Assembly: GCA_041481445.1 (NCBI GenBank)
Contig: JBGPBV010000016.1
Location: 12,432-76,431 of the forward strand
Direction: 5' to 3'
From: Vicinamibacteria bacterium
GTDB lineage: Bacteria > Acidobacteriota > Vicinamibacteria > Fen-336
DNA length: 64,000 nucleotides
Part shown: positions 43,997 to 62,722 of the stretch, one piece after another
Layout: each line of letters begins with the position of its first letter
How positions within the stretch are numbered: the stretch's first letter is position 1
The notes under the pieces: model-generated
Told to the model about the DNA's origin: nothing
The model's database searches: none
Seen by the model: the letters and a program-made list of their open reading frames with translations, nothing else
Translations under genes and position numbers: made by a program

Positions 43997-44869
43997 GTGA
44001 CGTCCAACAGGGTCAGCAACGATGGCATCCCCGATCACATGCCGCCGTTGCTGCGGCGGCGCCTCGAGCGTGCGGAGGCCTGGGCCGGCAACGAGAAAAC
44101 GGCGGCTCTCGTCGAGATGCCAGGTCTGGTGGCATGGGTGCATTCCGTGCCCAGCGACTCCAGTACGGGTGGCGGCGACGTCCACTACCTGTCCGTCTGC
44201 CCCAGCGGGATCGTCTCCCGGATCGCCCTTGCCGACGTGAGCGGGCACGGACAGGCCGTGATGAGCGTCGGTGAGAAGCTGCGTGAGCTCATGCTCCGAT
44301 ACCTCACGGCGCTGGAACAGGTCGGGCTCATGCGGGATCTGAGTCGAGCGGTCCGGGAAGAACTGGACGGCGTGCACTACGCCACGATGGTAGCGGTCGG
44401 ATGGCATGGCCGCCGCCGCCTGCTCGTCGTGACGAATGCGGGGCACCCCCCGCCGTGTTGGTACCGCGCGGCCCTTGGTGAATGGAGTTGGATTGGAGCG
44501 CGACACGCCAGCGAGCGAGGGCGGACGGTCGGCGTTCCCCTCGGCCTGCTCGCCGACAGCAGCTACGACCGCGCGGTACTCAAGCCCGAGATAGGCGACC
44601 TGGTGGTGCTGTACACGGACGGGGTCTTTGAAGCCTCGAACGAGGCGGGAGACGAGCTGGGTCGCGACGGGCTGATGAGGATCGCGCGCGGGTTGGACGC
44701 GAGCTCGGCCGAGGCTTTCGGAAGCCAGTTGGCGGCCGCGCTGCGCCGCTTCCGCGGACGCGCGGAACCCACCGACGATCAGACGATCATCGTCCTGCAG
44801 AGGGTGGCTCCCGAGACGTCGCCAAGTGGATCCCGGCCTGACCCACGGAAACGGGCCGCGCGGAAATAG
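43997..44869 (+). CDS. PP2C-family (SpoIIE-like) serine/threonine phosphatase, stand-alone
   Basis: A GGAGGG RBS precedes a GTG at 43997; an alternative ATG is at 44039. SpoIIE-like metal-binding motifs ALADVSGHG and YTDGVFEA. Confidence 0.7.
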   Translation: MTSNRVSNDGIPDHMPPLLRRRLERAEAWAGNEKTAALVEMPGLVAWVHSVPSDSSTGGGDVHYLSVCPSGIVSRIALADVSGHGQAVMSVGEKLRELMLRYLTALEQVGLMRDLSRAVREELDGVHYATMVAVGWHGRRRLLVVTNAGHPPPCWYRAALGEWSWIGARHASERGRTVGVPLGLLADSSYDRAVLKPEIGDLVVLYTDGVFEASNEAGDELGRDGLMRIARGLDASSAEAFGSQLAAALRRFRGRAEPTDDQTIIVLQRVAPETSPSGSRPDPRKRAARK

Positions 44870-45026: not shown

Positions 45027-45698
45027 ATGACGGCCAGACCCATCGTGTTCGTCGTCGACGCCGACGTCTCCGTGCGTGAGTCCCTGGAGCTGCTGATCGA
45101 CCGCAGTGGCTGGCAGCCGAGGACGTTCGCGTCGGCGCCGGAGTTCCTGGCTCAGGCGCGTGTCCCCGCTCCGAGCTGCATGGTGCTCGACGTCGCTCTC
45201 CCGGGCCTCAGCGGCCTCCACCTGCAGAAGCTCGTCGCCGACCGGACCGACATGCCGATCATCTTCCTCACCGGCTCCGGCGACGTGGCCATGACCGTCC
45301 AGGCCATGAAGGCGGGCGCCGTGGAGTTCCTGACCAAGCCGTTCCGTCCCGACGTGCTCGTTGGCGCCATCCGCGAAGCGCTCGAGCGCAGCTGGCAGGC
45401 ACTGGCGCGGGAGACGGCGCTGAAGTCTCTCCGTGAGTCCTACGCGTCCCTCAGCCGCCGCGAACGGGAAGTGATGGCCCTGGTCGTCGCCGGGCTCCTG
45501 AACAAGCAGGTCGGGGGCGAGCTCGGCATCAGCGAGATCACCGTCAAGGCGCACCGCGGCCAGGTGATGCGGAAGATGCAGGCCGACTCCCTCGCCGCCC
45601 TGGTGAAGATGGCGGCGAGACTCGACCTTCCCGCCGCCTGGCCGGCGGAGCCGGTTCGCCCGGTCGCGGTGACCGCCTATGGCCAGTTGTCCCTGTGA
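45027..45698 (+). CDS. FixJ/LuxR-family response regulator
   Basis: A GAGGAGG RBS precedes the ATG at 45027. REC domain (IVFVVDAD...CMVLDVALPGLSG). LuxR-type HTH (SRREREVMALVVAGLLNKQVGGELGISEITVKAHR). Confidence 0.85.
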   Translation: MTARPIVFVVDADVSVRESLELLIDRSGWQPRTFASAPEFLAQARVPAPSCMVLDVALPGLSGLHLQKLVADRTDMPIIFLTGSGDVAMTVQAMKAGAVEFLTKPFRPDVLVGAIREALERSWQALARETALKSLRESYASLSRREREVMALVVAGLLNKQVGGELGISEITVKAHRGQVMRKMQADSLAALVKMAARLDLPAAWPAEPVRPVAVTAYGQLSL

Positions 45699-47107: not shown

Positions 47108-48181
47108 CTAGTCGATCCGCAGGCTTTGTTCCATCGAGTAGCACTGGTCCCAGACGTAGATGTCGAAGGCGGCGAGCCTGGCCGACCACTTCGGCGTCAG
47201 CCGCTCGACGCACTGCGCCGCCACCCGGTCGATGTAGTTGTCGAAGACCGCCCACGGGTTCGACTTGTCGAGCGGATTCAAGCCCTCACCGGGCTTGGTG
47301 GTGGCCAGGGCCGTGCCCGCCGCCTGCTTCACGTCCGCATAGAATTGCGCCTGCACGTCCACGTCGGCATGGGTACCCGTACGCGCGACATGGCCTCCCA
47401 CCAGCGTGTCCCAGTCCATCTTGCGGATCTCTTCCACCTGGGCGATGGAGCGTTGTACGTCCTGAGCCACCGCGAAACGACGCCACGGCATCCAGCCCGG
47501 GAAGACCACGTCGACGACCATCAGCACCCGCTGGGCGGGCGCGGAGATGAAGATGTTGCCCGGCTCGTGTGCATTGCCGTGGTACGAGAGCTCGAGCACC
47601 TGGCTGCCGGCGCGGAGGGTATAGCGGTCGGCGAACGTCACCGTGGGCAGGGGCCGGTTCGGATCGGCCGCACGCTTGAGCAGCCGGAGGGTTTCCTCGT
47701 GCGCGATGACGACGGGATGACCGCCGAGGGCCTTGATGCCCGCGATGTGGTCGGTGTGCGAATGGCTGTAGACGACGTGCGTGATCGGCCGGTCGGTGAC
47801 CTCGGCGATGGCCTGCGGAATGTGCGCGGCGTAGCCCGGGGGCGCGTCGATCACCACGACACCGCTCTCGTACACCAGGAACATCGACTGGTACGCGCCG
47901 TCCGTGACCATGTAGAGGCCCTTGCCCAGGTCCTGGCGGCGATAACCCTTGGCGGGGTCGATGGCCGGCCCCTGGGCCGAGGCGGGCACGTCCATGTACT
48001 TGCCGATTCTCACCCCGATCGGGGCGATCGCGGGCATGCCCGGGTAGGGTTCCCCGGCTGCCCCCGGGACCACGGCCGAGTCCGCGGAAGCGGCGTTCGT
48101 CGTCGCCGCGGGTCCGTTGAGGACGGCGAGGGCCACCGCCAAGGCCAACACGCCGGCGCCGAGCTTGATCGTCGTCGTCAT
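47108..48181 (-). CDS. secreted metallo-beta-lactamase-fold hydrolase
   Basis: A GGAGGA RBS precedes the ATG at 48181. Signal peptide. HSHTDH zinc motif. Confidence 0.8.
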   Translation of the reverse strand: MTTTIKLGAGVLALAVALAVLNGPAATTNAASADSAVVPGAAGEPYPGMPAIAPIGVRIGKYMDVPASAQGPAIDPAKGYRRQDLGKGLYMVTDGAYQSMFLVYESGVVVIDAPPGYAAHIPQAIAEVTDRPITHVVYSHSHTDHIAGIKALGGHPVVIAHEETLRLLKRAADPNRPLPTVTFADRYTLRAGSQVLELSYHGNAHEPGNIFISAPAQRVLMVVDVVFPGWMPWRRFAVAQDVQRSIAQVEEIRKMDWDTLVGGHVARTGTHADVDVQAQFYADVKQAAGTALATTKPGEGLNPLDKSNPWAVFDNYIDRVAAQCVERLTPKWSARLAAFDIYVWDQCYSMEQSLRID

Positions 48182-48220
48182 GTGATCCTCCATTCTGGAC
48201 GCCTGCGCGATCTGACCACA

Positions 48221-48316
48221 CGCTCGAACACCGAAACCATTGGACGAAAGTGTCGGTCGAAACCGATACCAAAGTCCGATGGACGAACCGCCCTCGCCGC
48301 GCGCATCCTGACCGCC
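48221..48316. repeat. intergenic cassette C: ATTGGACGA-N-ACCGATACCAA-N-GATGGACGA-N16-GCGCATCCT
   Basis: Same architecture and about 75% identity to 54741..54848. Lies in the MBL/VOC divergent region. Confidence 0.65.
48280..48309 (+). promoter_or_regulatory. putative sigma70-like promoter (-35 TGGACG, 18-nt spacer, -10 CATCCT) of the VOC gene, embedded in cassette C
   Basis: The -35/-10 hexamers are conserved in position and sequence with cassette D. Lies 72 nt upstream of ATG 48381. Confidence 0.3.
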
Positions 48317-48380
48317 AACCATGGAAGCCGCGATTGAGACGGATGCATCCCATACAAACGATCAGGAGAGAGAGGCCACG

Positions 48381-49058
48381 ATGAGCACGCAGACACGCAG
48401 TGAGCAAGCCGCCCGGGCCCCGAACGCCGCGACGGTCGAAACGAAGCTCGAGGTCGTCGTCCTTCCGGTGTCCGATGTCGATCGCGCCAAGCGCTTCTAT
48501 GGGGGCCTGGGATGGAGGCTGGACGCCGATTTCACCAACGGCCCGGATTGGCGGGTCGTGCAAATGACCCCTCCCGGCTCGCAAACCTCCGTCCAAATCG
48601 GCAAGGGAATCACGACGGCCATGCCGGGCTCGGTCAAGGGAACGTTCCTCGTCGTCGAAGACATCGAGGCCGCACGCGCCGAGCTCATCGGCAAAGGCGC
48701 CGACGTGAGCGAGCCGTTCCATTTCGCCAGCATCGGGGGACCGCGCTTGCCCGGCGTCGACCCCGAACGTCGCACCTACAACACCCGGGCCACGTTCAGC
48801 GATCCGGACGGCAACACCTGGCTGCTCCAGGAGATCACGACGCGGCTTCCCGGACGCGGATTCAGCGGGCTGGACGTCGCGACGCTGACCGGGCTCCTGC
48901 GGGAGGCGGAGACGCGCCACGGCGCGTACCAGCCGACCGCTCCGAAGCACCACTGGTCGGACTGGTACGCCGCCTACATCGTCGCCCGCGAGCGCGGCCG
49001 GACTCCCGAGGACGCCGTCAAGGACGCGGGGCTCCACTTGGAGGGCGCGCGGCGTTGA
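48381..49058 (+). CDS. VOC (glyoxalase/bleomycin-resistance/dioxygenase) family protein
   Basis: An AGGAGAGAGAGG RBS precedes the ATG at 48381. Two beta-alpha-beta-beta-beta modules. Confidence 0.8.
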   Translation: MSTQTRSEQAARAPNAATVETKLEVVVLPVSDVDRAKRFYGGLGWRLDADFTNGPDWRVVQMTPPGSQTSVQIGKGITTAMPGSVKGTFLVVEDIEAARAELIGKGADVSEPFHFASIGGPRLPGVDPERRTYNTRATFSDPDGNTWLLQEITTRLPGRGFSGLDVATLTGLLREAETRHGAYQPTAPKHHWSDWYAAYIVARERGRTPEDAVKDAGLHLEGARR

Positions 49059-51127: not shown

Positions 51128-51136
51128 TCGTGGCTC

Positions 51137-52168
51137 TCAAATGCCGTCGACGTCGATGACCGCCCGGGCGAACGCTTCGGGCGCCTCCTGGGGAACGTTG
51201 TGCCCAATGCCGTCGAGGATCCGGTGCGCGTGCTTGCCGGCGAACTGCCGGGCATAGGGCGCGCCATCCGCGGCGGCGCCGTCGAAATCACTGCCAATGG
51301 TGATGGCCGGCACCGTGATGGCGGGACGCCGGAACAGCTTCTGCTCCAGGTCCTCGTATCGGGATTCACCCTTGGCCAGGCTCAGCCGCCAGCGGTAGTT
51401 GTGGATCACGATCGCGACGTGATCGGGGTTGTCGAAGGAAGCCGCCGTGCGGTCGTACGTCGCGTCGTCGAAGTCCCACTTGGGCGAGGCGATCTTCCAG
51501 ATGAGCTTGTTGAACTCGTACCAGTTCCGGCGGTAGCCGAGCTGGCCACGCTCCGTCGCGAAGTAGTACTGGTACCACCATCCCCATTCCGCCTTCGGCG
51601 GCAGGGGCTGCTGGTTGGCCTCCAGGTTCACGATCAGGTAGCCGCTGACCGACACGATCCCCTTGCAGCGCTCGGGCCAGAGGGCGGCCATGATGTCGGC
51701 CGTCCGCGCCCCCCAGTCGAAGCCGGCGACGATCGCCTTCTGGACGCCGAGCGCATCCATCAAGGCGAGGATGTCGGCCGCGATCGCCGACTGCTGGCCG
51801 TTGCGGAACGTGTCGGCGGAAAGGAATCGCGTCGTGCCATAGCCGCGCAGGAAGGGCACGATCACCCGGTATCCCTCGGCCGCCAGCAAGGGCGCCACGT
51901 CCACGTAGCTGTGGATGTCGTAGGGCCAGCCGTGGAGGAGAACGACGGCGGGGCCACTCCTGGGGCCTGCTTCGGCGTACCCCATGTTCAGCAGCCCCGC
52001 CTCGACCTGCCGGATCGGGCCGAGCGACGTGTTCGTTCCCGGCTTGCGCTCGCCCATTCGCGGCGCTGCCTGGGCGGACTGCGCGAGCGGGGAGCCCATG
52101 GCGAGCTCGGCCACGGTCAGTGCCGCGGCTCCCATGAAGCGGCGGCGATCGAGCTCGATCCCCGTCAT
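51137..52168 (-). CDS. Tat-exported alpha/beta hydrolase (epoxide-hydrolase-like)
   Basis: RRRFMGAAAL twin-arginine signal. LLHGWPYD and GFDWGA motifs. Its ATG overlaps the upstream stop (ATGA). Confidence 0.8.
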   Translation of the reverse strand: MTGIELDRRRFMGAAALTVAELAMGSPLAQSAQAAPRMGERKPGTNTSLGPIRQVEAGLLNMGYAEAGPRSGPAVVLLHGWPYDIHSYVDVAPLLAAEGYRVIVPFLRGYGTTRFLSADTFRNGQQSAIAADILALMDALGVQKAIVAGFDWGARTADIMAALWPERCKGIVSVSGYLIVNLEANQQPLPPKAEWGWWYQYYFATERGQLGYRRNWYEFNKLIWKIASPKWDFDDATYDRTAASFDNPDHVAIVIHNYRWRLSLAKGESRYEDLEQKLFRRPAITVPAITIGSDFDGAAADGAPYARQFAGKHAHRILDGIGHNVPQEAPEAFARAVIDVDGI

Positions 52169-52746
52169 AGGATCTCGTCGATCCGGTGCACCGCTCCGTC
52201 CGGGCGCGTTTCGCCGACACCGACGCTGATGATGCGATTCAGGAATGCGTACGTCTCCGCCGAGGTCTCGAACCTCGGCACCGTTCGGAAGTAGTAGCGC
52301 GCGGGATCGACGACCTCTCCACGCCCGAGGGCGGCGATCGCGTCCGGGGGGCCGTGACGGAGCCCCTGGAACGTCATGTAGATCAGCCCATGGTCGTCCG
52401 TCTCCAGCGTGATGCGCAGGTCCAGCTCCAGGACGCCGTCGGAGCGCAGCAACAGCCAGTCCCCTCCCCCGGGCAGGATCTTTCCGCGCAGTCGCGGGCC
52501 TTCGAAGTCGCCGCCCGTGACCGGCACGATGATGCGCGTGCCATGGGGCACCGTGCCGAGCTTCTGCGGCGGAGCGGCGGTGATCCTCACCGTCATCAGT
52601 GGTCGCGAGTTCATGGCGGGCTGTCTCCCCTTCGCGGCGGCGGGGGCGCCATCGGCGGCGGCCCTCGGCGCAAGTCCCGGCAGGGCGCTCGCGGCCCCGG
52701 CAACGAGAGGGGCCGCCACGGCCTTGAGCACGTCTCGGCGAAACAT
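52165..52746 (-). CDS. DUF3237-family protein with Tat signal
   Basis: MFRRDVLKAVAAPLVAGAASALP. Paralog of the next gene. Confidence 0.65.
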   Translation of the reverse strand: MFRRDVLKAVAAPLVAGAASALPGLAPRAAADGAPAAAKGRQPAMNSRPLMTVRITAAPPQKLGTVPHGTRIIVPVTGGDFEGPRLRGKILPGGGDWLLLRSDGVLELDLRITLETDDHGLIYMTFQGLRHGPPDAIAALGRGEVVDPARYYFRTVPRFETSAETYAFLNRIISVGVGETRPDGAVHRIDEIL

Positions 52747-52748
52747 GA

Positions 52749-53198
52749 CTAGAGGATTTCCTCGATCGTATAGATCGGTCCGTTCGCGCGGCGATCGCCC
52801 GACGCGATGGCGATCACGCCGTTCAGGTAGGCGTACTGCGGCGCGCTCGTCTCGAACCGTGGCGCGGTCCGGAAGTAGTACCTGGACGGATCGACGGACT
52901 CGCCTCGCGCCAGCGCCGCGAGCACGTCCGCGGAGCCGTGACGGAAGCCGAACGACGACATGTTGATCAAGGCGCCGTCGTCCGTCTCCAGCGTGATCCT
53001 GAGATCGAGCTCCAGCACGCCGTCCGCCCGCAAGAGCGTCCAGTCCCCTCCGCCCGGCAGGACCTTGCCGCGCAGCCGCGGGCCGTCGAAGCTGCCGCTG
53101 GTGATCGGCGCGATGACGCGTGTTCCATGCGGCACCGCGCCGAGCCTTTGCGGCGGAGGGACGACGACCCGCAGCGTCATCAGCGGACGTGAAGTCAT
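52749..53198 (-). CDS. DUF3237-family protein (cytoplasmic paralog)
   Basis: About 149 aa. Roughly 70% identical to the C-terminal 150 aa of 52165..52746, indicating tandem duplication. Confidence 0.65.
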   Translation of the reverse strand: MTSRPLMTLRVVVPPPQRLGAVPHGTRVIAPITSGSFDGPRLRGKVLPGGGDWTLLRADGVLELDLRITLETDDGALINMSSFGFRHGSADVLAALARGESVDPSRYYFRTAPRFETSAPQYAYLNGVIAIASGDRRANGPIYTIEEIL

Positions 53199-53212
53199 CG
53201 GGGCTCCCCGGA

Positions 53213-54514
53213 TCACCGGAGCGACTTGAATCCCGCGCGGAGATCCGCGACCAGGAGCTCCGGCTGCTCCCAGGCCGCGAAGTGGCCGCCCTTGTCGAGT
53301 TTGTTGTAGTAGACGAGTTTCGGATAGGCCCGCTCTGTCCAACTGCGCGGCGCCTGATAGAGCTCATCGGCAAAGGCGCTGACGGCAACCGGGATGGCGA
53401 TGCCTTTCGGGGCGAAAAAGACGAGCTTGCTCTCCCAATAGAGACGAGCCGACGAGACCCCCGTGTTCGTCAACCAGTAGAGGGTCACGTTGTCGAGGAT
53501 ATCGTCTCGGGTCAGGCCCTCCTTCTGGCCGCCAATGACGCGCGCGATGAGCGCATAACTGCTAGCGTCGTGATCGATCATCCAAGCGGCGAGACCGATC
53601 GGCGAATCGTCGATCCCGTACAGCGTCTGCGGGCGGTGGCTCATCTCCTGGGCGTAGCCGAGGCCGTTCTTGTAGAAGAAGTCGAGCTGATCGTACGCAT
53701 GACGCTCATCGGCCGAGAGGCCGGCCGGCGCCGCGCCGCCGGACGAGAGCGCCTTGGCAATGTCGTCGGGGACGGTGGCCGGCATATTGGTGTGAATGCC
53801 AAGGAGCTCCGGAGGCGCCTGCAGGGCCATCTGCTCGGTGACGGCATTCCCCCAGTCGCCCCCCTGGGCCACGAATCGCGTGTAGCCGAGGCGCTTCATC
53901 AGGACGGTCCAGGCGCGCGCGATGCGAATAGGGTCCCAACCGGGAGTGGTGGGCTTCCCTGAGAACCCGTGGCCCGGCAACGACGGAATCACGACGTCGA
54001 AGGCGTCCGATGCACTTCCGCCATGGGCCGTTGGATTCGTCAGCGGATCGATGATCTTCAACTGCTCGATGATCGAGCCTGGCCACCCATGCGTGACGAT
54101 GAGCGGCAATGCACTCGGATGCTTCGAACGCACGTGGATGAAATGAATGTCCACCCCGTCGATGTTCGTGATGAACTGCGGCAGGGCGTTCAGCCTCGCT
54201 TCGGCCTTCCGCCAGTCGTAATCGGTCTGCCAATAGCGCGCGAGCTCTCGCATCGTCGCGAGCTGCACGCCTTGCGATGCATCCGTTACCGTTTCCCGCG
54301 ACGGCCACTTGCTTGCGGCGATGCGCCGACGCAGGTCCGCGAGAGCCTCATCGGATGCATGAAACTGGAATGGCCGGACCTGTTTGTCGTCCGTGGCCGG
54401 GTCCCTTTCGGCGGCGGACGGCGGCGCCGCGGCCCGAGCGCTGGCGGCGAGCACGCCGAGGACGAAGAGCCCCCCGGCGGCGGCCGTGAACGTCGTCTGT
54501 CCGAAATGGGTCAT
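53213..54514 (-). CDS. epoxide hydrolase (microsomal-EH-like, N-terminal EHN domain)
   Basis: ATG at 54514 with a signal peptide. Motifs IHFIHVRSKHP...LIVTHGWPGS, GGDWG and HFAAWEQPE. Confidence 0.85.
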   Translation of the reverse strand: MTHFGQTTFTAAAGGLFVLGVLAASARAAAPPSAAERDPATDDKQVRPFQFHASDEALADLRRRIAASKWPSRETVTDASQGVQLATMRELARYWQTDYDWRKAEARLNALPQFITNIDGVDIHFIHVRSKHPSALPLIVTHGWPGSIIEQLKIIDPLTNPTAHGGSASDAFDVVIPSLPGHGFSGKPTTPGWDPIRIARAWTVLMKRLGYTRFVAQGGDWGNAVTEQMALQAPPELLGIHTNMPATVPDDIAKALSSGGAAPAGLSADERHAYDQLDFFYKNGLGYAQEMSHRPQTLYGIDDSPIGLAAWMIDHDASSYALIARVIGGQKEGLTRDDILDNVTLYWLTNTGVSSARLYWESKLVFFAPKGIAIPVAVSAFADELYQAPRSWTERAYPKLVYYNKLDKGGHFAAWEQPELLVADLRAGFKSLR

Positions 54515-54560
54515 GTCGGATTCCTTTCTCAGGCGCTCACCCCGCCGGTCCGAGGGGATC

Positions 54561-54660
54561 GGTGGCGCGCGAAGACACCGACAAGATCGTCCCGCGGGCC
54601 CGGATGTTCCATTGGACGATGGTGTCGGCGATACCTTCGTATCGGTCGCGACGGTCACGC
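54561..54660. repeat. intergenic cassette A (about 100 nt) with CCATTGGACGA and the 7-1-7 imperfect palindrome GGTGTCGGCGATACC
   Basis: About 80% identical over roughly 100 nt to 60619..60712. Lies between the EH1 start and the SDR fragment. Confidence 0.7.
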
Positions 54661-54770
54661 CTTGTCTGCGTAGGCTCTGTTGTCCACGGGCACGAGTCCG
54701 CGGATCATCTGGCCGCCGTCCACGACGAAGGTCTGCCCCGTGGCGTACGAGGCGGCGTCCGATTTATTGG
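54655..54770 (-). pseudogene. C-terminal fragment of an SDR-family oxidoreductase
   Basis: ...ASYATGQTFVVDGGQMIRG...* is the canonical SDR C-terminus. The upstream part of ORF 54655..55008 is non-coding-like. Confidence 0.4.
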
Positions 54771-54848
54771 ACGATGGCATCGATCCCACCTGAACCGATA
54801 CCAACGTCTGATGGACGATTGCGCTGTGGATGCGCATCCTTTGCCGGG
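54741..54848. repeat. intergenic cassette D (paralog of C) upstream of the SRPBCC gene
   Basis: Sequence: ATTGGACGAtggcatcgatcccacctgaACCGATACCAAcgtctGATGGACGAttgcgctgtggatGCGCATCCT. Confidence 0.65.
54812..54840 (+). promoter_or_regulatory. putative sigma70-like promoter (-35 TGGACG, 17-nt spacer, -10 CATCCT) of the SRPBCC gene, embedded in cassette D
   Basis: Same arrangement as in cassette C. Lies 47 nt upstream of ATG 54887. Confidence 0.3.
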
Positions 54849-54886
54849 ACGCCGCCTCCGAATGGCGGGTCAAGCAAGGAGCACGC

Positions 54887-55336
54887 ATGTCCACGATCCA
54901 TCTCCACCAGACGACCACCGTGACGCCCGAGCAGTTCGTGGCCGGGCTCACCGACTTCGGGCCGGGCCGCTCGAAGCTGTTTGGCAACAGCGCCGACGAG
55001 TACCTCAAGGTGCATCACCAGGCCTCCAAAGAGGCCGACGTCACCGAGGGATCGGGGGGTATCTGGGAACGCCTGCACTACGACTGGTCCGACCCCAACC
55101 GCGTCGTCCTCACGACGACCGACTCCAACCTGTGGGGAGGCGCTTCCGGCCACACCTACACCTTCACGCGGCAGCCCAACGGCACGACCGACATCGACGC
55201 CGTCGTGGTACGCGACGGCAAGAACCTCAGGGGACGGATGCTCGGCCTCGTGCTCGGGACCGTCGGCAAGGGCGTCCTGGAAAAGGCCTTTCGAAACACC
55301 GTCAAGGCCGTCGAAGCCCGAAACGCCGGGGCATAG
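54887..55336 (+). CDS. SRPBCC-family (polyketide cyclase/START-like) protein
   Basis: ATG at 54887 (MSTIHLHQTTTVTPEQFVAG). About 149 aa. Confidence 0.65.
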   Translation: MSTIHLHQTTTVTPEQFVAGLTDFGPGRSKLFGNSADEYLKVHHQASKEADVTEGSGGIWERLHYDWSDPNRVVLTTTDSNLWGGASGHTYTFTRQPNGTTDIDAVVVRDGKNLRGRMLGLVLGTVGKGVLEKAFRNTVKAVEARNAGA

Positions 55337-55399
55337 GCGCCGGCAGCCGATCGCTGACCGAACGCTGAGACGAGGTGATTGGCGTGAAGACCAATATTC

Positions 55400-56670
55400 G
55401 TGTCAATAACGCGGCCTACGAGCTCTCCGTGGGACGCCGAAGGCTCGTTCGCTTTGGAGTCGGCCATCGACGAGCTCTCGTACGCGCTGGGCATCGATCC
55501 AATCGAGCTGCGAGTGAAGAATCACGCGCACGTGCATCCGGAGAGCGGCCTGCCGTGGTCGAGCAATGCGCTGATGGACTGCTATCGACGCGGTGCGGAA
55601 CGCTTCGGCTGGTCGGCGCGCAATCCAAAGCCTCGATCGATGAGGAACGGGGGGCAGCTCGTCGGATACGGCATGGCCCGAGCGGCATTGGTCGCGTACC
55701 AGCCCCCATGCAAAGCCATCGCATCCATACGGCGCGATGGAACGGCCTTCGTTCGCAGCGGCGCGACCGATATCGGGCCGGGCCCCCCCTACACCGTGAT
55801 GACGATGCTCGCGGCGGATTGCCTTGGCGTGCCGATCGAGCGTGTGCAGTTCGGTCTGGGTGATAGCCCGATGCCGAAGGCGCCGCAGGAAGGTGGGTCC
55901 GGACTGACGGGCGCACTCGGCAACGCCGTCCAGGCGGCCTGTGTCGATCTCGTCCGCGCATTCGTGAATCGCGTCCGCGACGACGAGGCGTCTCCCCTCG
56001 AGGGATGTCGATTGGAGGGCATCACCGTTCGGGACGGAGGCATCCAGATCACCGACGATCCCGCGCGCTTCGAAACATATGCCGCCATACTCACGCGGCA
56101 CGGTCTGGACGAGATCACCATTGAAGCAGAGAGCGCGCCGCCGGGTGAGACCTCGCCCGTCACGATGATCGCCCGCGCCGGTCGCTTCGTCCCCTTCACG
56201 GCGCCGTCGACGGGCGCCCGCGCGCACGCCGGGGGATATGCCGCGCACTTCGTCGAGGTCCACGTCGATCCGGATCTCGGAACGATCCGCGTGGCGCGCG
56301 TCGTGTCGGCGGTGGATGGAGGCCGGATTCTCAACCCGAAGACGTCCCGCAGTCAGATCACCGGGGGCATGGCCGGCGGAATCGGCATGGCACTGCTGGA
56401 GGAAACCGTATCGGACCGTACCGTCGTCTGGTGAACACGTCGCTGGCCGACTATGTCGTGGCGCTGAACGCGGACGTGCGGGATGTCGATGTGCTGTTCG
56501 TGGGACAACCCGATTCAATGACCCCCCTCGGAACAAAGGGGGTCGGGGAGCTCGCCATCGCCGGGATGGCGGCCGCAATCGCCAATGCGGTCTATCACGC
56601 GACGAGCACGCGGGTCCGCTCGTTGCCGCTCTCCATCGAGAAGGTGCTCGGACAGGAGTCCTCCCGTTGA
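55400..56670 (+). pseudogene. N-terminally truncated, frameshifted molybdopterin-binding subunit of a xanthine-dehydrogenase/CO-dehydrogenase-family oxidoreductase
   Basis: Only the C-terminal roughly 420 aa are present. A -1 frameshift at about 56425 (ACCGTCGTCTG where ACCGGTCGTCTG would restore ...SDRTGRLVNTSLADY...). Just upstream, about 16 codons resembling the start of a 2Fe-2S small subunit (VKTNIRVNNAAYEL) lie out of frame. Confidence 0.7.
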
Positions 56671-56686
56671 AGCAGGAGATCAGGAG

Positions 56687-57568
56687 ATGTCGATGACAAC
56701 GGCAGCCAGCAACACGACGGCCCCAACGCAGCTCCTCCGAGGGAGAAGCGAGACGTACGCGTATCGCCGTTTCGGCGGCGGACCCGCACGTCCCTTGCTG
56801 TTTCTCCAGCACTTCACCGGGACGCTCGACAACTGGGATCCTGCCGTGACTGATCCGCTCGCAACAGAGCGAGAAGTCATCTTGTTCGATAGCGCAGGCG
56901 TAGGGCGGTCAACCGGCAAGGTGCCCGTCACGGTAGCCGGAATGGCGGCGCATGCGCTGGACTTCCTGGACGGCTTGGGGTTGGACAGATGTGATGTCCT
57001 CGGATTCTCGCTCGGCGGAATGGTCGCGCAGCAGATGGCGCGGGACCGCCCCTCGATGTTCCGCCGGATGATTCTCGTGGGGACCGCGCCGCGCGGCGGC
57101 GACGACATCATGCACCTGGAGAAACCGAGTCTGGCCAGGCACCTTGGTGATCCGACCCTCAAGGGATACGCAGTGTTGCCGAAGCTTTTCTTTGCGCCGA
57201 CGTCGTCGAGCCAGGCGGCCGGCGGGGCGTTCATCGAGAGGCTGGCACAACGAAGCGAGGACCTCGACACCGCATCCGGACCGGCCGTCGCCGCCGCGCA
57301 GATGGCGGCGTTCCGTGAGTGGGAGCAGTCTACGGGGACCCGCTTCGGCGATCTCGAGGGCATCCTTCAGCCCACCCTCGTCGTCAATGGCATCTACGAC
57401 GAAATGATTCCCGTCGCGAACTCCTATCGGTTGGCCGAGAACCTTCCGAACGCCGTACTTCTCGCGTACCCGGACTCCGGACACGGTTCCCTCTTCCAGT
57501 TTCACGACTCCTTCACCCGGCACGCGGCGGCATTCCTCGCGTCGGACTCGCCGTTCGCACCCTACTGA
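56687..57568 (+). CDS. alpha/beta hydrolase
   Basis: An AGGAGATCAGGAG RBS precedes the ATG at 56687. GFSLGG nucleophile motif. Confidence 0.8.
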   Translation: MSMTTAASNTTAPTQLLRGRSETYAYRRFGGGPARPLLFLQHFTGTLDNWDPAVTDPLATEREVILFDSAGVGRSTGKVPVTVAGMAAHALDFLDGLGLDRCDVLGFSLGGMVAQQMARDRPSMFRRMILVGTAPRGGDDIMHLEKPSLARHLGDPTLKGYAVLPKLFFAPTSSSQAAGGAFIERLAQRSEDLDTASGPAVAAAQMAAFREWEQSTGTRFGDLEGILQPTLVVNGIYDEMIPVANSYRLAENLPNAVLLAYPDSGHGSLFQFHDSFTRHAAAFLASDSPFAPY

Positions 57569-57569
57569 G

Positions 57570-58382
57570 TCAGGTCGCCCACCATCCGGGCCAGCGCCAG
57601 CTCCGCGTCCCGCGTCTGGGAAGCCGCGCTCCATCGCGGCCCCGAACCGGCCTTGCGTCTCGGGGCTGCACGCGCCCTCGCCGAAGAGCTCGGAATCGCG
57701 ACGGAAGTCCTCGGCCGGAGCAAGCGCGATGGCATTGATCCGGTCCTTGAGCGCGACCGGGCCGGCGGCCGGAAACCCGGCGATCCGTTGCGCGAGCGAT
57801 CGCACGAAATCGCCGAGAGCGCTGGCGGGCAACGCCCGGTTGATCCAGCCGTACCGTTCCGCCAGGTCCGCGTCGCAATCCTCCGCGCTCAACATGACTT
57901 CGAGCGCCCGCCCGCGGCCCATGAGACGCGTCAAGTGCTGGACACCGCCCGCGCCGGGGATCAGGCCGAATGCCTGCTCCGGCTGCCCGAAAATCGCCGA
58001 CTCTCGCGCGGCAAAGCGCATGTCGCACCGCCAGCACGAACTCGCTGCCCGCGCCGCGCACGCGTCCCTCGATCTGGGCGATGGTGACGAAGCGGCTTGC
58101 GCTCAGGTGGCGAAACAGGAGGCCGATCGACGCTTCGCCGGTCAGCTTCGCCGCCTCCTGCCGGTACTCGCCTATCCGCGTCACATCGACGTGTGAAATG
58201 AAATAGTCGGGGTCGGCGCTCGTGAACACGAGCACCCGGACCGCGTCGTCGGCCTCGGCCCGCTGAATCAGGGACACCAGATCGCGGACCATTTCGGGCC
58301 CGAGGAGGTTCGTGGGCGGGGCCGCAATGGCAACGAACAGAACGGCCCCTTGCTGGCGCACCGTGAGGGTCTCGAGAGCCAT
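57570..58382 (-). pseudogene. enoyl-CoA hydratase/isomerase (crotonase) gene with +1 frameshift
   Basis: The N-terminal 120 aa are in one frame (MALETLTVRQQGAVLFVAIAAPP...GAGSEFVLA). The continuation CDMRFAARESAIFGQPEQAFGLIPGAGG... is in another frame, caused by an extra G at about 58030 (CTGGCGGTGCGAC). No in-frame stop lies at the expected C-terminus. Confidence 0.6.
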
Positions 58383-58390
58383 GGCGACTC

Positions 58391-59677
58391 CTACCGCAAC
58401 GACCGGAACGCCGCCCGGACCTCTTCGGAGAACAGCTGCGGCTGCTCCCAGGCCGCGAAGTGACGGCCCTTGTCCACCTCATGGAAGTAGATCAGGTTGC
58501 GGTACGTTCTCTCCACCCAGGTTCGTGGCGCACGCCAGATCTCGCCGGCGAAGACCGTGAATGCCGTGGGAACGGTGACGTCCCCCTTGTAAACGAGGCG
58601 CGCGTTCTCCCAGTAGAGCCGCGCGGCGGACGCGCCCGTGTTGGTGACCCAGTAGAGCGTGATGTTGTCGAGGATCTCGTCTCGCGTCAGTTCGCCCTCG
58701 GGGTGTCCTTCGAAGGCGTGCGCGATTTGCTCATAGGAGTGCGGGTCGTGATCGAGCATCCAGGCGGCGAGGCCGGCGGGGGTCTCCGCGAGGCTGTAGC
58801 CTATGGTCTGCGGGCGCGTGGCCTGCATGGCGAGATAGGCCAGAGCCAGGGCACTGCGTTGATCGAAAGCGGCCTTCTCCTTCTCGGATAGTCCGGCTGG
58901 CGCCGGGTCGTGCGTGGCGACCGCCCGCGAGATCTCCGGCGGGATGTTCAAGAGCAGGTTCATGTGGATGCCCAGCAGGCCCGGCGGCGCCTGGCGCGCC
59001 AGCGCCTCCGAGACTTTCGCGCCCCAGTCGCCGCCCTGCGACACGTAGCGCGTGTAGCCCAGGCGCTTCATCAACGTGTCCCAGGCGCGGGCGATGCGGT
59101 CGGTGTTCCAGCCGGCCGTGGTCGGTTTGCCTGAAAACCCGTAGCCCGGCATGGACGGAATCACCACATCGAACGCGTCCGACGCGCTCCCGCCATGTGC
59201 CGTGGGATTGGTGAGGAGATCGATGATCTTCAGCTCCTCGATGATCGAGCCAGGCCATCCGTGCGTGACGATGAGCGGCAAGGCATTCTTGTCTTTCGAA
59301 CGAACGTGAATGAAATGGATGTCCAGCCCATCGATCGTCGTCACGAACTGGGGCAAGGCATTGAGCTTTGCCTCCGCCTTCCGCCAGTCGTAGTCGGTCT
59401 GCCAGTAGCGCACCAGCTCCTTCATCGTCGCCGACTGGACGCCCTGCGATTGATCCGTAACCGTTTCCTGGTCGGGCCACCGGGTCGCGGCCAGGCGCCG
59501 CCGGAGGTCGACGAGCGTCTCTTCCGGAACGTGGACCTGGAAGGGACGGATGGCGCTGTCGTTGCCGCCCGCGGCCACGGCCGCCGTCCCCGTCGGCAGC
59601 CCGATCACCATCACCATGAACATGACGGTGCCGATTCGGTGTGCCACGCGGTGGGCCGGTCGTTCGAGTGGCTTCAT
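58391..59677 (-). CDS. epoxide hydrolase, paralog of 53213..54514
   Basis: About 75% identical to EH1 over the full length. Signal peptide. Confidence 0.85.
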   Translation of the reverse strand: MKPLERPAHRVAHRIGTVMFMVMVIGLPTGTAAVAAGGNDSAIRPFQVHVPEETLVDLRRRLAATRWPDQETVTDQSQGVQSATMKELVRYWQTDYDWRKAEAKLNALPQFVTTIDGLDIHFIHVRSKDKNALPLIVTHGWPGSIIEELKIIDLLTNPTAHGGSASDAFDVVIPSMPGYGFSGKPTTAGWNTDRIARAWDTLMKRLGYTRYVSQGGDWGAKVSEALARQAPPGLLGIHMNLLLNIPPEISRAVATHDPAPAGLSEKEKAAFDQRSALALAYLAMQATRPQTIGYSLAETPAGLAAWMLDHDPHSYEQIAHAFEGHPEGELTRDEILDNITLYWVTNTGASAARLYWENARLVYKGDVTVPTAFTVFAGEIWRAPRTWVERTYRNLIYFHEVDKGRHFAAWEQPQLFSEEVRAAFRSLR

Positions 59678-59694
59678 TGCGATGTCCTCCACAC

Positions 59695-59765
59695 ACATGA
59701 AACCAGACGCGCAACGTCCGATCCATTAGACTAAGGTATCGACGACACTCTCGTATCGCTCCACC
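59695..59765. repeat. intergenic cassette E (inverted core GGTATCGACGACACT plus CCATTAGAC) upstream of EH2
   Basis: The core 15-mer matches B in reverse orientation. Flank halves are shared with A. Confidence 0.55.
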
Positions 59766-59787
59766 GCCTGTGCGGCGGAGGTCAAGC

Positions 59788-60468
59788 TCAGAACCTGTCG
59801 GCCTGGGGATCCCAGAACGTGTCCGTCAGGCCGATCCGCGCGAAGATCTGCCTGATCTCGCTCGCGTCAGGCCGATGCGCTTGGGGGCTCAGACGGTTCG
59901 AATACCACGCCATGGCCATCTGCCAGAGCTGTGGAAGCGTCGCCGTGGGGCGCCGCGGCTGTTGGAGCGCGGTGCACCAGTCGTTCAATGCCTCTTCCGA
60001 CCGGAAGAACAGCATCAGGCTTCAAGTGAACACGATGTCGTTCCACCATTTCGACGCGGGAACGACGCAGTGGAACCGCCATCCCGAAGACGGCGGCCCG
60101 TCCGGGGTCAGATGAAGGACAAGCGGTTCGAGTGTCTGCTCGCAACGGGAGAGAACGCTACCGGTCCCGCCCAGCGCGGCGACGACACCGAACGCGTCCC
60201 ACGCGCAGTTTGCGAAGTACTCCGCTGCGTTCACCGTCGCCCGATGCTGGGTGGGGACGCCGGAAAACGGCGGTGCCATCCGAATGGATGCGAAATCGCC
60301 AGCGGGCAAGAGCATTCGTTTGGCGTACAGCCGGCGATACCCGTCCCGGACTTGCTCGCTCGTGGCGCCGACCGCCTCGCGCATGGCATCCAGCGTTGGA
60401 GACTGACCCGTGGTCGCGAAATGCCGATACACGGCCGTCCGCAAGGTCACATCAAAGGTGTCGTCCAC
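59788..60468 (-). pseudogene. alkylmercury-lyase (MerB)-like gene disrupted into two ORFs
   Basis: ORF 60022..60468 matches MerB through ...NCAWDAFG...RFHCVV. ORF 59788..60015 in another frame continues MLFFRSEEALNDW.... About 36-40 non-homologous nucleotides lie between the two. Confidence 0.5.
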
Positions 60469-60618
60469 ACTTCACTCCGATGTCTTCCACGCACATGATA
60501 CCAGGACACGCGACGCTCGATGTTGCGGGAAGTCGTTGACAGGAACTGCGTTGGCGGTGGATGACGCGCACCTCAGCCGCGCCGTCCACCGCACGGCCTT
60601 TGAACTACCGTCGCCAGC

Positions 60619-60712
60619 GGCGCGAAGACGCCGGACACGATGGCCCCGCGAGCCCAATGTTCCATTGGACGAAGGTGTCGTCGATACCTTCGTCCCGGTC
60701 GCGACGGTGGCC
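60619..60712. repeat. intergenic cassette B (paralog of A) with GGTGTCGTCGATACC
   Basis: Directly compared with A. Lies between the MerB-like start and the SDR 60726..61457 stop. Confidence 0.7.
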
Positions 60713-60725
60713 CGCTCCGCTAGCG

Positions 60726-61457
60726 CTAGCCGGCCACGAGCTGCTGCCCGCCGTCGATGTCGTAGGTCGCGCCCGTGAGGGCGGTGTTGATCATGATGTG
60801 TACGGCGAGCGCGGCGACGTCGGCCGGTCCGACGACACGCCGGATGGGAAGCGTGGCGCGGAGCTGATTGCGGCGGTCTTCGAGCTGATCGCCGAGGAGC
60901 GATGCCGACAACGGTGTGTCCACGAAGCCGGCGGCGATGAGGTTGACTCGGACGGGTGCGAGCTCGAGCGCGAGGTTCTTCGTCAGGGCGGGAAGCGCGG
61001 CGGTGAGAGCCGAGATGAACGCGAGTCCCGCCGCCGGGCGGCGGCCACCGGTGCCGCCCATGAAGAGCAGGGTCCCTCCCGGACGAACCTTGCTCGCGGC
61101 GTTCCGGGCGACCTGCAGCGGCAGCAAGAGATGGGCGTCCACGTCCCGGCGTGCCGCTTCCACGTCGAACGCCGCCAGCGGCGCGTAGTAGGGACCGGGG
61201 CCCGTGACCAGCACGTGGTCGATCGGCCTGGGCAGCTCGTGGAAGAACCTCCCGAGCCGTTCGAAGTCGGTGGCGTCGAAGGCGGTGATGCGGGCCCCAA
61301 GCTCGAGGCCGGCGCGGTGCAGGCGATCCGGGTCGCGCGCGGTGAGGATCACGTCGGCTCCCTCGGCGCGGGCGCGCCGGGCCGTCTCGAGGCCGATGCC
61401 CGAGCTGCCGCCGATCACGACGACAGTCTGCCCGGCGAGCTCAGGCTTGCCGCTCAT
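60726..61457 (-). CDS. SDR-family oxidoreductase
   Basis: VVVIGGSSGIG Rossmann motif. C-terminal YDIDGGQ. Confidence 0.85.
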   Translation of the reverse strand: MSGKPELAGQTVVVIGGSSGIGLETARRARAEGADVILTARDPDRLHRAGLELGARITAFDATDFERLGRFFHELPRPIDHVLVTGPGPYYAPLAAFDVEAARRDVDAHLLLPLQVARNAASKVRPGGTLLFMGGTGGRRPAAGLAFISALTAALPALTKNLALELAPVRVNLIAAGFVDTPLSASLLGDQLEDRRNQLRATLPIRRVVGPADVAALAVHIMINTALTGATYDIDGGQQLVAG

Positions 61458-61589
61458 GGTCGTTCCTTTGCGCCCTCACTTGACCGGCACGGACCTCTTT
61501 CTGGTCGCACCACCATGGTGCAGGAACAGAGTAGAGCGCGCACCCATTCGCAGGCGTCCCACGATCGAGTGCTTGTGCGCTACGTCGGG

Positions 61590-61730
61590 CGCGAAGGCGG
61601 CGACATACACGAATCCCGCCACCTCTGCATCCTACCCGGCTTCGGTAATCACCGCACCGCCGTAGGAGTGGCCGACGAGGATCACCGGGCCGCTCACCGC
61701 GGTAGAGGGGGTGTGCGTTTCTCTTTGATC
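61590..61730 (-). pseudogene. fragment of an alpha/beta hydrolase paralogous to 24050..24841, with in-frame stop
   Basis: The DNA at 61600-61700 is about 80% identical to 24480-24580. It translates to GPVILVGHSYGGAVITEAG*DAEVAGFVYVAAFAPD with no flanking coding frame. Confidence 0.5.
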
Positions 61731-61778
61731 AATCGCGGGAGCTACGAACGCCGTGCTCGCCGCTCGGCCGCCGCTCCC

Positions 61779-62714
61779 TCAGCGCTCGGGGGCGTCGCGG
61801 GCGAGGGCCAGGACCGGGGCGCGCGGCAGCGCCGGTCTCGGCGTGACCGAGGGCGCGGGGGAAGCCGCGGGTGCCCTGGGGTCCAGGCGCGCCTGCCGCA
61901 CTCCCATCGCCACGAGCAGTCCGTTGAGGATCGCCTGCGGCCGCGGCGGGCACCCCGGAACGTAGACATCGACCGGGAGCACGTGGTCGACGCCTCCGAT
62001 GGAGGCATAGGTGCCTTCACCGAAGATCCCGCCACTGCATCCGCAGGCGCCCACGGCGACGACGACCCGCGGCTCCGGCGCCGCTTCGTAGGTCCTCACG
62101 AGCGCGATCTCCATGTTCCGCGTGACGGGGCCGGTGACGAGGAGGAGGTCCGCGTGCCGTGGGCTGGCCACGAAATGGATGCCAAAGCGTTCGAGGTCGA
62201 AGACCGGATTCGCGGTGGCCGTGATCTCGAGCTCGCAACCGTTGCAGCTCCCGGCGTCCACCTCGCGGACGTGAAGCGAGCGTCCCAGCAACCCATGGAT
62301 CCGCGCGCGGAGGCGAGCCGCGGACTCCCCGAGCCCGGGACCGGGTTGAACCTCCATGTGCGTGAACCGGGCGAGGCCCGTGCCGTCCACTTCGAACGAC
62401 GCGGTCTGCGTGAGCTGCTCGCGGGTGTAGGCGGCGACGTCGACGTCGTGTCCGGAGGCCACCACTTGCGGCGGACACGCGTCCACGCACTCACGGCACT
62501 GGATGCAGGCGGCATAGGACAGCGAGAGCTGCCGGCGGTCGGGGGCGGGCGCCTTGAGCTGGATGGCGCCCGTGGGGCAGGCGCGCGCGCACTGCTCGCA
62601 GGCGGTACAGCGGGCGAAATCGATCACGGGGAAACCGAACGGCGGCCTGGCTCGGAACGGGTCCGCCTTCGTCACCACTCCGGTCTTGAGGCTCTTCGAC
62701 AGGATGCGGAACAC
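61779..62714 (-). CDS. fusion of 2x[4Fe-4S] ferredoxin (HycF/NuoI-like) with hydrogenase-small-subunit/NuoB-like (HycG-like) domain
   Basis: A GGAGGAG RBS precedes the GTG at 62714. Ferredoxin clusters CTACEQCARACP and CIQCRECVDACP. Then GSCNGCELE, GACGCSGG and GCPPRP cluster motifs, nearly collinear with E. coli HycG. Confidence 0.8.
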   Translation of the reverse strand: MFRILSKSLKTGVVTKADPFRARPPFGFPVIDFARCTACEQCARACPTGAIQLKAPAPDRRQLSLSYAACIQCRECVDACPPQVVASGHDVDVAAYTREQLTQTASFEVDGTGLARFTHMEVQPGPGLGESAARLRARIHGLLGRSLHVREVDAGSCNGCELEITATANPVFDLERFGIHFVASPRHADLLLVTGPVTRNMEIALVRTYEAAPEPRVVVAVGACGCSGGIFGEGTYASIGGVDHVLPVDVYVPGCPPRPQAILNGLLVAMGVRQARLDPRAPAASPAPSVTPRPALPRAPVLALARDAPER

Positions 62715-62722
62715 GTCTCCTC

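Follow-up and report, generated by a model that had tools for sequence, protein, structure and literature searches.

In the NarL and DosR/DevR systems, GerE-type regulators bind cooperatively to adjacent sites made of inverted heptamers (7-2-7 sites for NarL) or of a 20-bp palindrome, and DosR controls a stress regulon under GAF-domain kinases. The boxes of the StyS/StyR and TodS/TodT systems are 16-bp palindromes with a 6-4-6 geometry (ATAAAC-N4-GTTTAT). Phosphorylated StyR binds inverted-repeat sites, activates from a high-affinity site located at about -40, and can occupy neighbouring sites as a tetramer made of two dimers (PMC2442086). FixJ, an activator paired with PAS kinases and controlling a tiny regulon (fixK and nifA), has footprints on the fixK promoter that cover -69 to -44 and -57 to -31 (PMC4999443). 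The present work deals with a 64,000-nt stretch of DNA, hereafter called the window (G+C content of 70%), from a Vicinamibacteria bacterium (assembly GCA_041481445.1, contig JBGPBV010000016.1, positions 12,432 to 76,431). Its sequence was matched to positions 8992-72991 of contig JBGQKR010000013.1 in the metagenome-assembled genome GCA_041499675.1, and two of its proteins have closest homologs annotated as Vicinamibacterales or Vicinamibacteria, so that the organism is probably a high-GC acidobacterium. A previous sequence-only reading had noticed three intergenic cassettes (A, B and E) carrying a 7-1-7 imperfect palindrome, GGTGTCG-N-CGATACC, and had proposed either the operator of a dimeric regulator shared by detoxification genes or repeats of the REP/MITE type (repetitive extragenic palindromes or miniature inverted-repeat transposable elements). 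Our analysis makes it fairly probable that these cassettes are promoter modules carrying the activator boxes of a FixJ/NarL-type two-component regulon, whose regulator would be encoded at 45027-45698 of the window.

Among proteins of solved structure, the best match of this regulator is 1yio (E = 4.6e-52), presumably StyR, followed by FixJ chain 5xso. The geometry of the boxes is also the one of StyR and TodT. However, the box found here (CGATAC-N4-GTATCG) has a different sequence, and the boxes abut (1-2 nt) whereas those of StyR/TodT are tens of bp apart with IHF between them. Furthermore, many scattered detoxification and redox genes appear to be targeted here instead of one catabolic operon, and the sensors would be a GAF/PAS kinase, a MEDS protein and a receiver protein in Terriglobia or, in the window, the product of an adjacent PP2C gene. 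FixL/FixJ belongs to the same family as the regulator of the window, and its footprint on the fixK promoter has a position like the one proposed below. Nevertheless, the published FixJ site, TAAGTAATTTCCCTTA, is unrelated to the box CGATACsAAGGTATCG, and a set of detoxification enzymes is found here instead of fixK and nifA (PMC4999443). The best match of the regulator among NCBIfam models is the FixJ model NF006900, with a score (195.6 bits) below the 255-bit cutoff, so that the protein does not qualify as a FixJ equivalog. NarL and DosR/DevR recognize other half-sites and belong to the HisKA_3/NarL branch, not to the FixJ branch; no homology of sites is claimed. Mobile promoters and REP/MITE elements offer a last parallel, since a promoter of ~90 nt is likewise repeated in one genome before unrelated genes with a breakpoint at the cassette edge, but no sign of transposition is seen here and a functional-looking operator and promoter are conserved across phyla.

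The sequence GGTRTCGNCGAYACC occurs three times in the window with at most one mismatch (at 54621, 59735 and 60674) compared to 0.07 expected from shuffles, and the 32-mer CCATTGGACGANGGTGTCGNCGATACCTTCGT, which includes the CCATTGGACGA flank, occurs twice exactly compared to 0 expected. Cassettes A and B are 86% identical across 54567-54655 / 60620-60709 and 92% identical in a 52-nt core; the identity of about 80% over roughly 100 nt given by the previous reading was recovered (80%). In the 100 nt flanking them on either side, identity falls to just 51-58% in a forced alignment. Therefore, the unit shared by A and B is discrete and its borders are sharp. E (59718-59769), which shows 68% identity to A in the core, is a diverged copy in the same orientation. 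Its near-symmetric 15-mer had been described as inverted and, taken alone, does fit B better as a reverse complement; however, its flanks, CCATTAGAC on the left and CTCGTATCG on the right, are oriented as in A and B, so that the cassette as a whole is not inverted. As initially described, all three cassettes are located 5′ of minus-strand genes, which encode two epoxide hydrolases (EH1, start at 54514, and EH2, start at 59677) and a MerB-like protein (start at 60468). Two copies had been overlooked (48240-48279 and 54767-54811); both have a longer central spacer and both are located in divergent intergenic regions.

One genome per species was scanned with the pattern ATTGGACGANNGNNTCGN{1,13}CGATACC, which retrieved at least 118 loci; all counts given below concern the matches listed. 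The central spacer is 1 nt long in 64 sites and 2 nt long in 52, and reaches 8 and 13 nt at the two additional sites of the window, while the 16-bp units TTGGAC-N4-GT(A/G)TCG and CGATAC-N4-GTATCG remain intact whatever its length. Therefore, the 7-1-7 palindrome corresponds to the inner arms of two abutting 16-bp boxes of 6-4-6 geometry and not to one dimer site: the proposal of a shared operator is supported, but not the one of a single dimer site. The arm centres of GATAC-N4-GTATC are 9 bp apart, within the range of a GerE-type dimer site (about 8-10 bp), and the loci contain virtually no match to the control patterns GATAC-N3-GTATC, GATAC-N5-GTATC and GTATC-N6-GATAC. In addition, the loci contain 38 sites that fall outside the search pattern; they keep the proximal box and the promoter context, and their distal box is often degenerate.

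As inverted repeats can fold, and as GGTGTCG and CGATACC of the plus strand would pair with one G-U, the palindromes could act as RNA, in a hairpin of the 5′ untranslated region (5′UTR), an attenuator or a riboswitch. We consider this extremely improbable. The boxes are upstream of the putative -35 element and would thus be untranscribed, half-site changes are not compensated (for example AGTATCG vs CGACACC, or GGTATCG vs CCATACT), the central loop would be only 1-2 nt long, and the conserved outer arms (TTGGAC and GTATC) are not complementary. Moreover, a search of 52000-64000 against Rfam (E ≤ 1) gave no match in the cassettes, and a chance match to a snoRNA elsewhere in this region.

On the strand of the target gene, the profile of 112 unique sites reads GATACsAAGGTATCG, n, CGATACCwTCGTCCAA, T-w-G-a-t-t, a 17-nt spacer and yyTaAT. 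The spacer is pyrimidine-rich and ends with cTTC-TGG, and the G of the TTG that opens the -35-like block is found in 110 of the 112 sites. These conserved blocks are compatible with a -35-like hexamer located 17 bp before an extended -10-like element, both hexamers being putative; CCATTGG would supply the start of the -35-like element. Each cassette would thus be composed of (i) a distal box, CGATAC-sAAG-GTATCG, (ii) 1-2 nt, (iii) a proximal box, CGATAC-CwTC-GTCCAA, (iv) a -35-like hexamer, T(T/A)GATT in Terriglobia and TGGAAC in the lineage of the window, (v) a spacer of 16-18 nt and (vi) a -10-like hexamer, TGG-yyTaAT in Terriglobia and GATCGT in the lineage of the window. With this arrangement, the two boxes would span about -67 to -36 and the proximal one would be centred near -43. 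This location upstream of the -35 element speaks for an activator site more than for the operator of a repressor. By analogy with StyR and FixJ, the phosphorylated regulator would bind each 6-4-6 box as a dimer, with two dimers side by side, and the proximal dimer would contact RNA polymerase, leading to activation. A sigma-54 promoter was considered for TGGCyTAATyGC and rejected, because the GG-GC spacing is 8 nt and not 11. A small open reading frame (ORF) or leader peptide, as could be imagined from the recurrent MFHWT... frames, was also ruled out, as the 1- or 2-nt spacer shifts the frame and some copies have an in-frame TAG.

The block could also be mainly a promoter for a sigma factor of the extracytoplasmic function (ECF) type, with GGAAC of TGGAAC as the -35 element and the palindromes as secondary features. 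GGAAC directly follows the boxes in A and B, the -10-like element of Terriglobia is not a canonical sigma-70 one, and three of the left-hand genes in acidobacterial loci encode ECF sigma factors. However, Terriglobia carry T(T/A)GATT at the position of GGAAC, which is therefore specific to a lineage, and the genes of ECF sigma factors are not recurrent neighbours. ECF promoters have a spacing of 16-18 nt, whereas GGAAC and the nearest CGT are separated by ~20 nt in A/B-type cassettes. Since the strongest conservation is moreover found in the upstream palindromic boxes, which are not read by a sigma factor, this explanation appears quite improbable.

A and B carry a version of the promoter that is specific to their lineage. 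A metagenome scan with a pattern specific to A and B found six contigs of close relatives, in which the cassette heads epoxide hydrolase and DUF3237 genes. The alignment of the seven sequences shows conservation from the distal box through TGGAAC, the 17 nt CCGGGCTCGCGGGGC and GATCGT, beyond which all similarity is lost. Such conservation followed by a collapse is the behaviour expected of an operator and a core promoter placed before unrelated 5′UTRs. The G+C-rich spacer CCGGGCTCGCGGGGC (54589-54605 and 60643-60658) is about as conserved as the boxes, in paralogous cassettes as well as in relatives. This is unusual for the spacer of a promoter, and might reflect either the binding of another protein or the propagation of the cassette.

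The listed loci belong mostly to Terriglobia and other Acidobacteriota, and a few of them to Alpha- and Betaproteobacteria, Polyangiales, Planctomycetes, Solirubrobacterales and Chthoniobacterales. It should also be mentioned that two loci, one from an "Alphaproteobacteria" metagenome-assembled genome (L019) and one from an "Actinomycetota" one (L063) of the same project, have near-identical motif surroundings; part of the spread across phyla may be due to binning errors. When the motif is oriented as in the window, nearly all listed loci have, left of ATTGGAC, the start of an ORF encoded on the opposite strand. In acidobacterial loci, start codons with a good Shine-Dalgarno sequence are located 86-104 nt from ATTGGAC, compared to 97 nt for the ATG of EH1. 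Among the first genes to the left of the motif are those of cytochromes P460 (n = 12), alpha/beta hydrolases (n = 8), HbpS-like proteins (n = 7), short-chain dehydrogenases/reductases (SDRs, n = 6), DJ-1/PfpI proteins (n = 4), aldo-keto reductases (n = 3), epoxide hydrolases (n = 3) and metallo-beta-lactamases (n = 3). The sites thus have the placement in promoters, with a fixed position and orientation towards genes, that is expected of response-regulator sites. At least two proximal boxes are present in 41 of the 118 blocks of 8 kb (168 boxes overall compared to about 1 in shuffles), showing that the regulon is clustered in islands, as in the window. Overall, the operator marking a regulon that had been proposed from three cassettes is supported, as the same module heads diverse detoxification and redox genes with a fixed polarity at no fewer than 118 loci.

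The candidate regulator, a FixJ/NarL-family response regulator with Pfam receiver and GerE helix-turn-helix domains, is encoded on the plus strand (45027..45698), 9 kb from the cassettes. A phmmer search against all ORFs of the 118 listed loci revealed an ortholog (235-301 bits, 55-73% identity) in at least 26 loci. In 20 of these 26, the ortholog is found right of the motif and is encoded divergently from the target gene, and in five loci its start is 200-235 nt away. In many other loci, the regulator gene ends an operon that also encodes a MEDS protein or a PAS/GAF kinase and a receiver. All-against-all clustering of the ORFs of the 118 loci showed that the FixJ-like regulator family is present in the largest number of them (n = 35), followed by the GAF/PAS histidine kinase (n = 26) and then by enzymes that are also encoded in the island of the window (SDR, glyoxalase, enoyl-CoA hydratase, metallo-beta-lactamase and alpha/beta hydrolase); apart from the regulator, the top 20 clusters include no DNA-binding family. 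By chance, the regulator would be expected in ~0.3 of 118 random 8-kb blocks, assuming 1-3 copies per ~5 Mb. The reciprocal test was done on five long contigs (20-kb loci) selected solely because they encode a homolog of the regulator (81-91% identity). All five contain intergenic boxes with typical flanks at 9 kb or less (nine sites compared to 0.65 matches of any kind expected), and the same gene families are found again in their neighbourhoods. The regulator is also present in two relatives (L121 and L125). Therefore, the regulator gene co-localises with the sites in loci selected by the motif as well as in those selected by the regulator, and, among the classes that had been suggested for the binding protein (TetR, MarR or LuxR), the LuxR type fits best.

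The boxes could nevertheless be the operator of another transcription factor (TetR, MarR, LysR or other) encoded elsewhere, the FixJ-like regulator being a mere member of the stress island. The link between box and protein is one of co-localisation only, and in most loci that contain the regulator its gene is 0.2-4.5 kb from a box and not directly beside it. LysR and ECF sigma genes are found among the left-hand genes in 2-3 listed loci, and a MarR gene (L131) or a LysR gene (L130) is found near the regulator. However, the regulator is, as stated above, the sole DNA-binding family among the major clusters, and its link with the boxes is two-way and cross-phylum. In addition, nearly all orthologs have an unchanged helix-turn-helix stretch, ISEITVKAHRG, the exceptions being two conservative variants, compared to TAESTVKVQRS in paralogs from the same operons; this invariant recognition helix parallels the invariant box, and the 6-4-6 geometry suits dimers with a GerE-type helix-turn-helix. 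An unrelated factor is thus unlikely, although it deserves to be kept in mind.

Several observations weigh against the attribution of the boxes to a FixJ/NarL-type activator. First, the box does not resemble the published FixJ site (PMC4999443), and it is therefore co-localisation that assigns the box to the protein; the regulator could be a plain member of the regulon, encoded beside target genes, and not its master. Second, a tblastn search of the window and of the relative L119 found no PAS kinase of the Terriglobia type, so that the cognate kinase that accompanies the regulator in Terriglobia is lacking in the window. Third, a strict sigma-70 scan of 48000-61000 (TTGACA, 16-18 nt, TATAAT, with a minimum of 9 matches out of 12, among which the A of position 2 and the T of position 6 of the -10 element were required) detected 0 sites, and the -10-like consensus of Terriglobia, yyTaAT, is devoid of the usual A at position 2. 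Therefore, it is uncertain which sigma factor is used and exactly where transcription starts. A scan of the same region for terminators gave terminator-like sites at or below chance. Finally, the scan pattern fixes many positions of the motif and thus inflates the apparent conservation within it.

Our full-text literature searches, including searches on acidobacterial regulons, retrieved no description of this box or regulon. The class of the regulator is well known, but the regulon itself is apparently undescribed and would be present in many soil Acidobacteria and in some other phyla. To our knowledge, little is known on transcriptional regulation in Acidobacteriota, which are among the most abundant soil phyla. 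More tentatively, and with odds that we would place below even, the boxes and the FixJ-like regulator could form the core of a multi-phylum stress and detoxification regulon of soil bacteria, best developed in Acidobacteriota and perhaps corresponding to their general or electrophile stress response. Its sensing modules would be interchangeable (GAF/PAS kinase, MEDS protein and receiver in Terriglobia, PP2C in Vicinamibacteria-like bacteria), and the ~90-nt cassette might spread by duplication or recombination and recruit genes, including that of a MerB-like lyase that is probably a selenoprotein. This work combines a cis-element with sharp limits, a candidate regulator whose recognition helix is invariant and a coherent set of target enzymes acting against epoxides, aldehydes, peroxides, organometals and hydroxylamine or nitric oxide (NO). 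It would also allow a stress context to be assigned to members of unknown function (DUF3237, DUF6582, HbpS-like and a 149-aa protein), and provides a concrete case of promoter cassettes reused before different genes.

Cassette A (54567..54655, minus strand) would comprise the operator and core promoter of the EH1 operon, which includes the genes of EH1 (53213..54514, minus strand, identified with Pfam), of two DUF3237 proteins, of an alpha/beta hydrolase and of a redoxin; it can be aligned with its counterparts in relatives over the whole segment between the distal box and the -10-like hexamer, both included. All its elements are on the minus strand. Its proximal box, TTGGACGATGGTGTCG (54612..54627), corresponds to the consensus of the listed loci, and its distal box, CGATACCTTCGTATCG (54629..54644), is a perfect 6-4-6 palindrome with 0 mismatches. 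The alignment points to a putative core promoter at 54583..54611, composed of TGGAAC (54606-54611), a 17-nt spacer and GATCTT (54583-54588). Cassette B (60620..60709, minus strand) would provide the MerB-like gene with an upstream operator and core promoter; its ortholog in the relative L132 is the cassette adjacent to an SDR gene. It carries, on the same strand, a proximal box, TTGGACGAAGGTGTCG (60665..60680), a distal box with 2 mismatches, CGATACCTTCGTCCCG (60682..60697), and a putative core promoter, also deduced from the alignment (60637..60664), with TGGAAC (60659-60664), a 16-nt spacer and CATCGT (60637-60642). Cassette E (59697..59758, minus strand), located upstream of EH2 (58391..59677, minus strand, identified with Pfam), fits the acidobacterial promoter consensus ATTAAGCCAGA. 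Its proximal box, TTAGACTAAGGTATCG (59726-59741), and its distal box, CGACACTCTCGTATCG (59743-59758), would be associated on the minus strand with a core promoter made of a -35-like TGGATC (59720-59725), 17 nt and an extended -10-like TGG + TTTCAT (59697-59705), followed by GGAGGA and the ATG. A module of the E type also adjoins the regulator gene in L133.

The two sites that had been missed, hereafter sites I and II, are two-sided. Such back-to-back proximal boxes, by which one site would serve two divergent promoters, were also found in L028, L043, L048 and L134. In site I (48240..48279, both strands), the left box, TTGGACGAAAGTGTCG, is separated by an 8-nt linker from the right box, CGATACCAAAGTCCGA. 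The former faces an operon of the minus strand encoding a metallo-beta-lactamase and a Pyr_redox protein, and the latter an operon of the plus strand encoding a glyoxalase and AhpC. The first genes, both identified with Pfam, encode a metallo-beta-lactamase-fold protein on the left (47108..48181, minus strand) and a glyoxalase/VOC protein on the right (48381..49058, plus strand). An orthologous site with an identical linker length is present in L126. In site II (54767..54811, both strands), a 13-nt linker separates the left box, TTGGACGATGGCATCG, from the right box, CGATACCAACGTCTGA. The latter faces a plus-strand gene encoding the 149-aa protein (54887..55336), devoid of any Pfam family, with a putative promoter composed of TGGACG, 17 nt and CATCCT (54812-54840); this right half recurs in L125 and L134. 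Altogether, the probable targets are epoxide hydrolases, the MerB-like lyase, the glyoxalase/VOC protein, the metallo-beta-lactamase-fold protein, peroxiredoxins, DUF3237 proteins, SDRs and an enoyl-CoA hydratase, a set which suggests that the signal would be an electrophile, oxidative or nitrosative stress.

The gene order around the cassettes was also compared with that of relatives. As pointed out by the sequence-only reading, A and B are each 3′ of an SDR sequence. An intact SDR gene (60726..61457, minus strand) is located directly upstream of B on the same strand, and a remnant of 41 codons from the 3′ end of an SDR gene (54658..54783, minus strand) is located between A and site II. In L132, an SDR gene (its product 84% identical to that of the window) and the cassette precede the genes of an epoxide hydrolase, of two DUF3237 proteins and of a redoxin. 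By comparison, the SDR gene and the same cassette (B) are followed in the window by the MerB-like gene, the homology with L132 ending at ~60635, just past the -10-like hexamer. Therefore, the position of the cassette 3′ of an SDR gene results from a conserved gene order. A single recent duplication of the cassettes with their SDR flanks was ruled out, since the remnant shares only TGxxxxxDGGQ with the SDR encoded next to B.

These data bear on the possibility that the cassettes are REP/MITE-like or selfish repeats, or leftovers of segmental duplications, without any regulatory role. The ~90 nt common to A and B have sharp borders and extend to the spacer, which is normally not conserved and is thus more than regulation alone needs. 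Furthermore, an E-type core promoter is duplicated before the MerB-like gene, and the cassette next to the SDR gene is followed by a MerB-like gene in the window but by an epoxide hydrolase gene in L132, the break being just past the -10-like hexamer. However, no terminal inverted repeats or target-site duplications were seen beyond the boxes, the boxes are conserved across phyla whereas their flanks are not, and the borders correspond to the operator on one side and on the other to the predicted transcription start, where conservation ends. Apart from loose-pattern matches judged to be due to chance, every copy that was examined in detail lies between genes and points to a gene start, and no copy was confidently located inside a gene. 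The hallmarks of REP/MITE elements were thus not found, as judged on partial genomes, and repeats devoid of regulatory role are very improbable. Of the alternative put forward previously, the mobile repeat is contradicted by the absence of terminal repeats, the fixed polarity and the conservation across phyla, but the association with rearrangement junctions is genuine, as copies of the cassette coincide with gene-order breakpoints among relatives.

The gene of the MerB-like lyase (59788..60468, minus strand), a target that is annotated as two proteins of 148 aa and 75 aa, has an in-frame TGA at 60022-60024. When this single TGA is read through, the match to the Pfam MerB profile, otherwise limited to positions 1-80 (47 bits), covers positions 1-125 of 126 (83 bits). 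Nearly all of the 120 listed homologs (60-91% identity) were called at ~148 aa and cover only the part that precedes the TGA, indicating that they stop at the same codon. In the two homologs considered at the DNA level, the TGA, the downstream frame and a UCUUCC-GGUC-GGAAGA hairpin are all kept; this hairpin starts 17 nt past the UGA (about 59985-60008 in the window). The TGA is presumably aligned with the catalytic Cys pair of MerB. Taken as a whole, these sequence features suggest that the gene is not truncated and that the TGA is probably a selenocysteine codon. MerB-like lyases containing selenocysteine (SaoL, NF040728) are listed in reviews (PMC9312934, PMC13188914). The protein of the window scores 29.5 bits with the SaoL model NF040728 (cutoff of 140) and may belong to a related but separate clade of selenoproteins. 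A phmmer search with the read-through protein against PDB sequences gave no match.

A SpoIIE/PP2C phosphatase gene (43997..44869, plus strand) is located directly upstream of the regulator gene, and its product is a possible signalling partner. It is also found near the regulator in L130 and L132. In Terriglobia, the regulator is instead accompanied by a GAF/PAS-HisKA kinase, a protein with a MEDS domain and another composed of a receiver alone. The input module of the regulator thus appears to have been exchanged between lineages. The intergenic region upstream of the SpoIIE/PP2C-regulator operon contains a box-like 16-mer with 2 mismatches, CGCTACCAAGGTATCT (43900-43915). Autoregulation through this box is not claimed, since such a match is within chance expectation.

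Other features of the island point to duplications. A box-less copy of the E-type core promoter, 5′UTR, Shine-Dalgarno sequence and first codons is found at 60468..60520 (minus strand), with 81% identity over 52 nt to 59677-59728 (EH2). The MerB-like gene thus has a proximal promoter copy in addition to cassette B, which is ~150 nt further upstream. The tandem DUF3237 paralogs (52169-53052) share 70% identity over 300 nt, and the EH1 and EH2 genes (53416-54149 vs 58591-59321) show 77-81% DNA identity in blocks. Overall, the island has grown by local gene duplication. The enoyl-CoA hydratase gene (56912-58382, minus strand) looks frameshifted, as the ORF 57573-58382 matches positions 2-109 of ECH_1 whereas positions 115-209 are matched by another frame (56912-58021); a pseudogene or an error of the assembly could account for this. 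On the other strand, 56693-57568 is called as an alpha/beta hydrolase gene.

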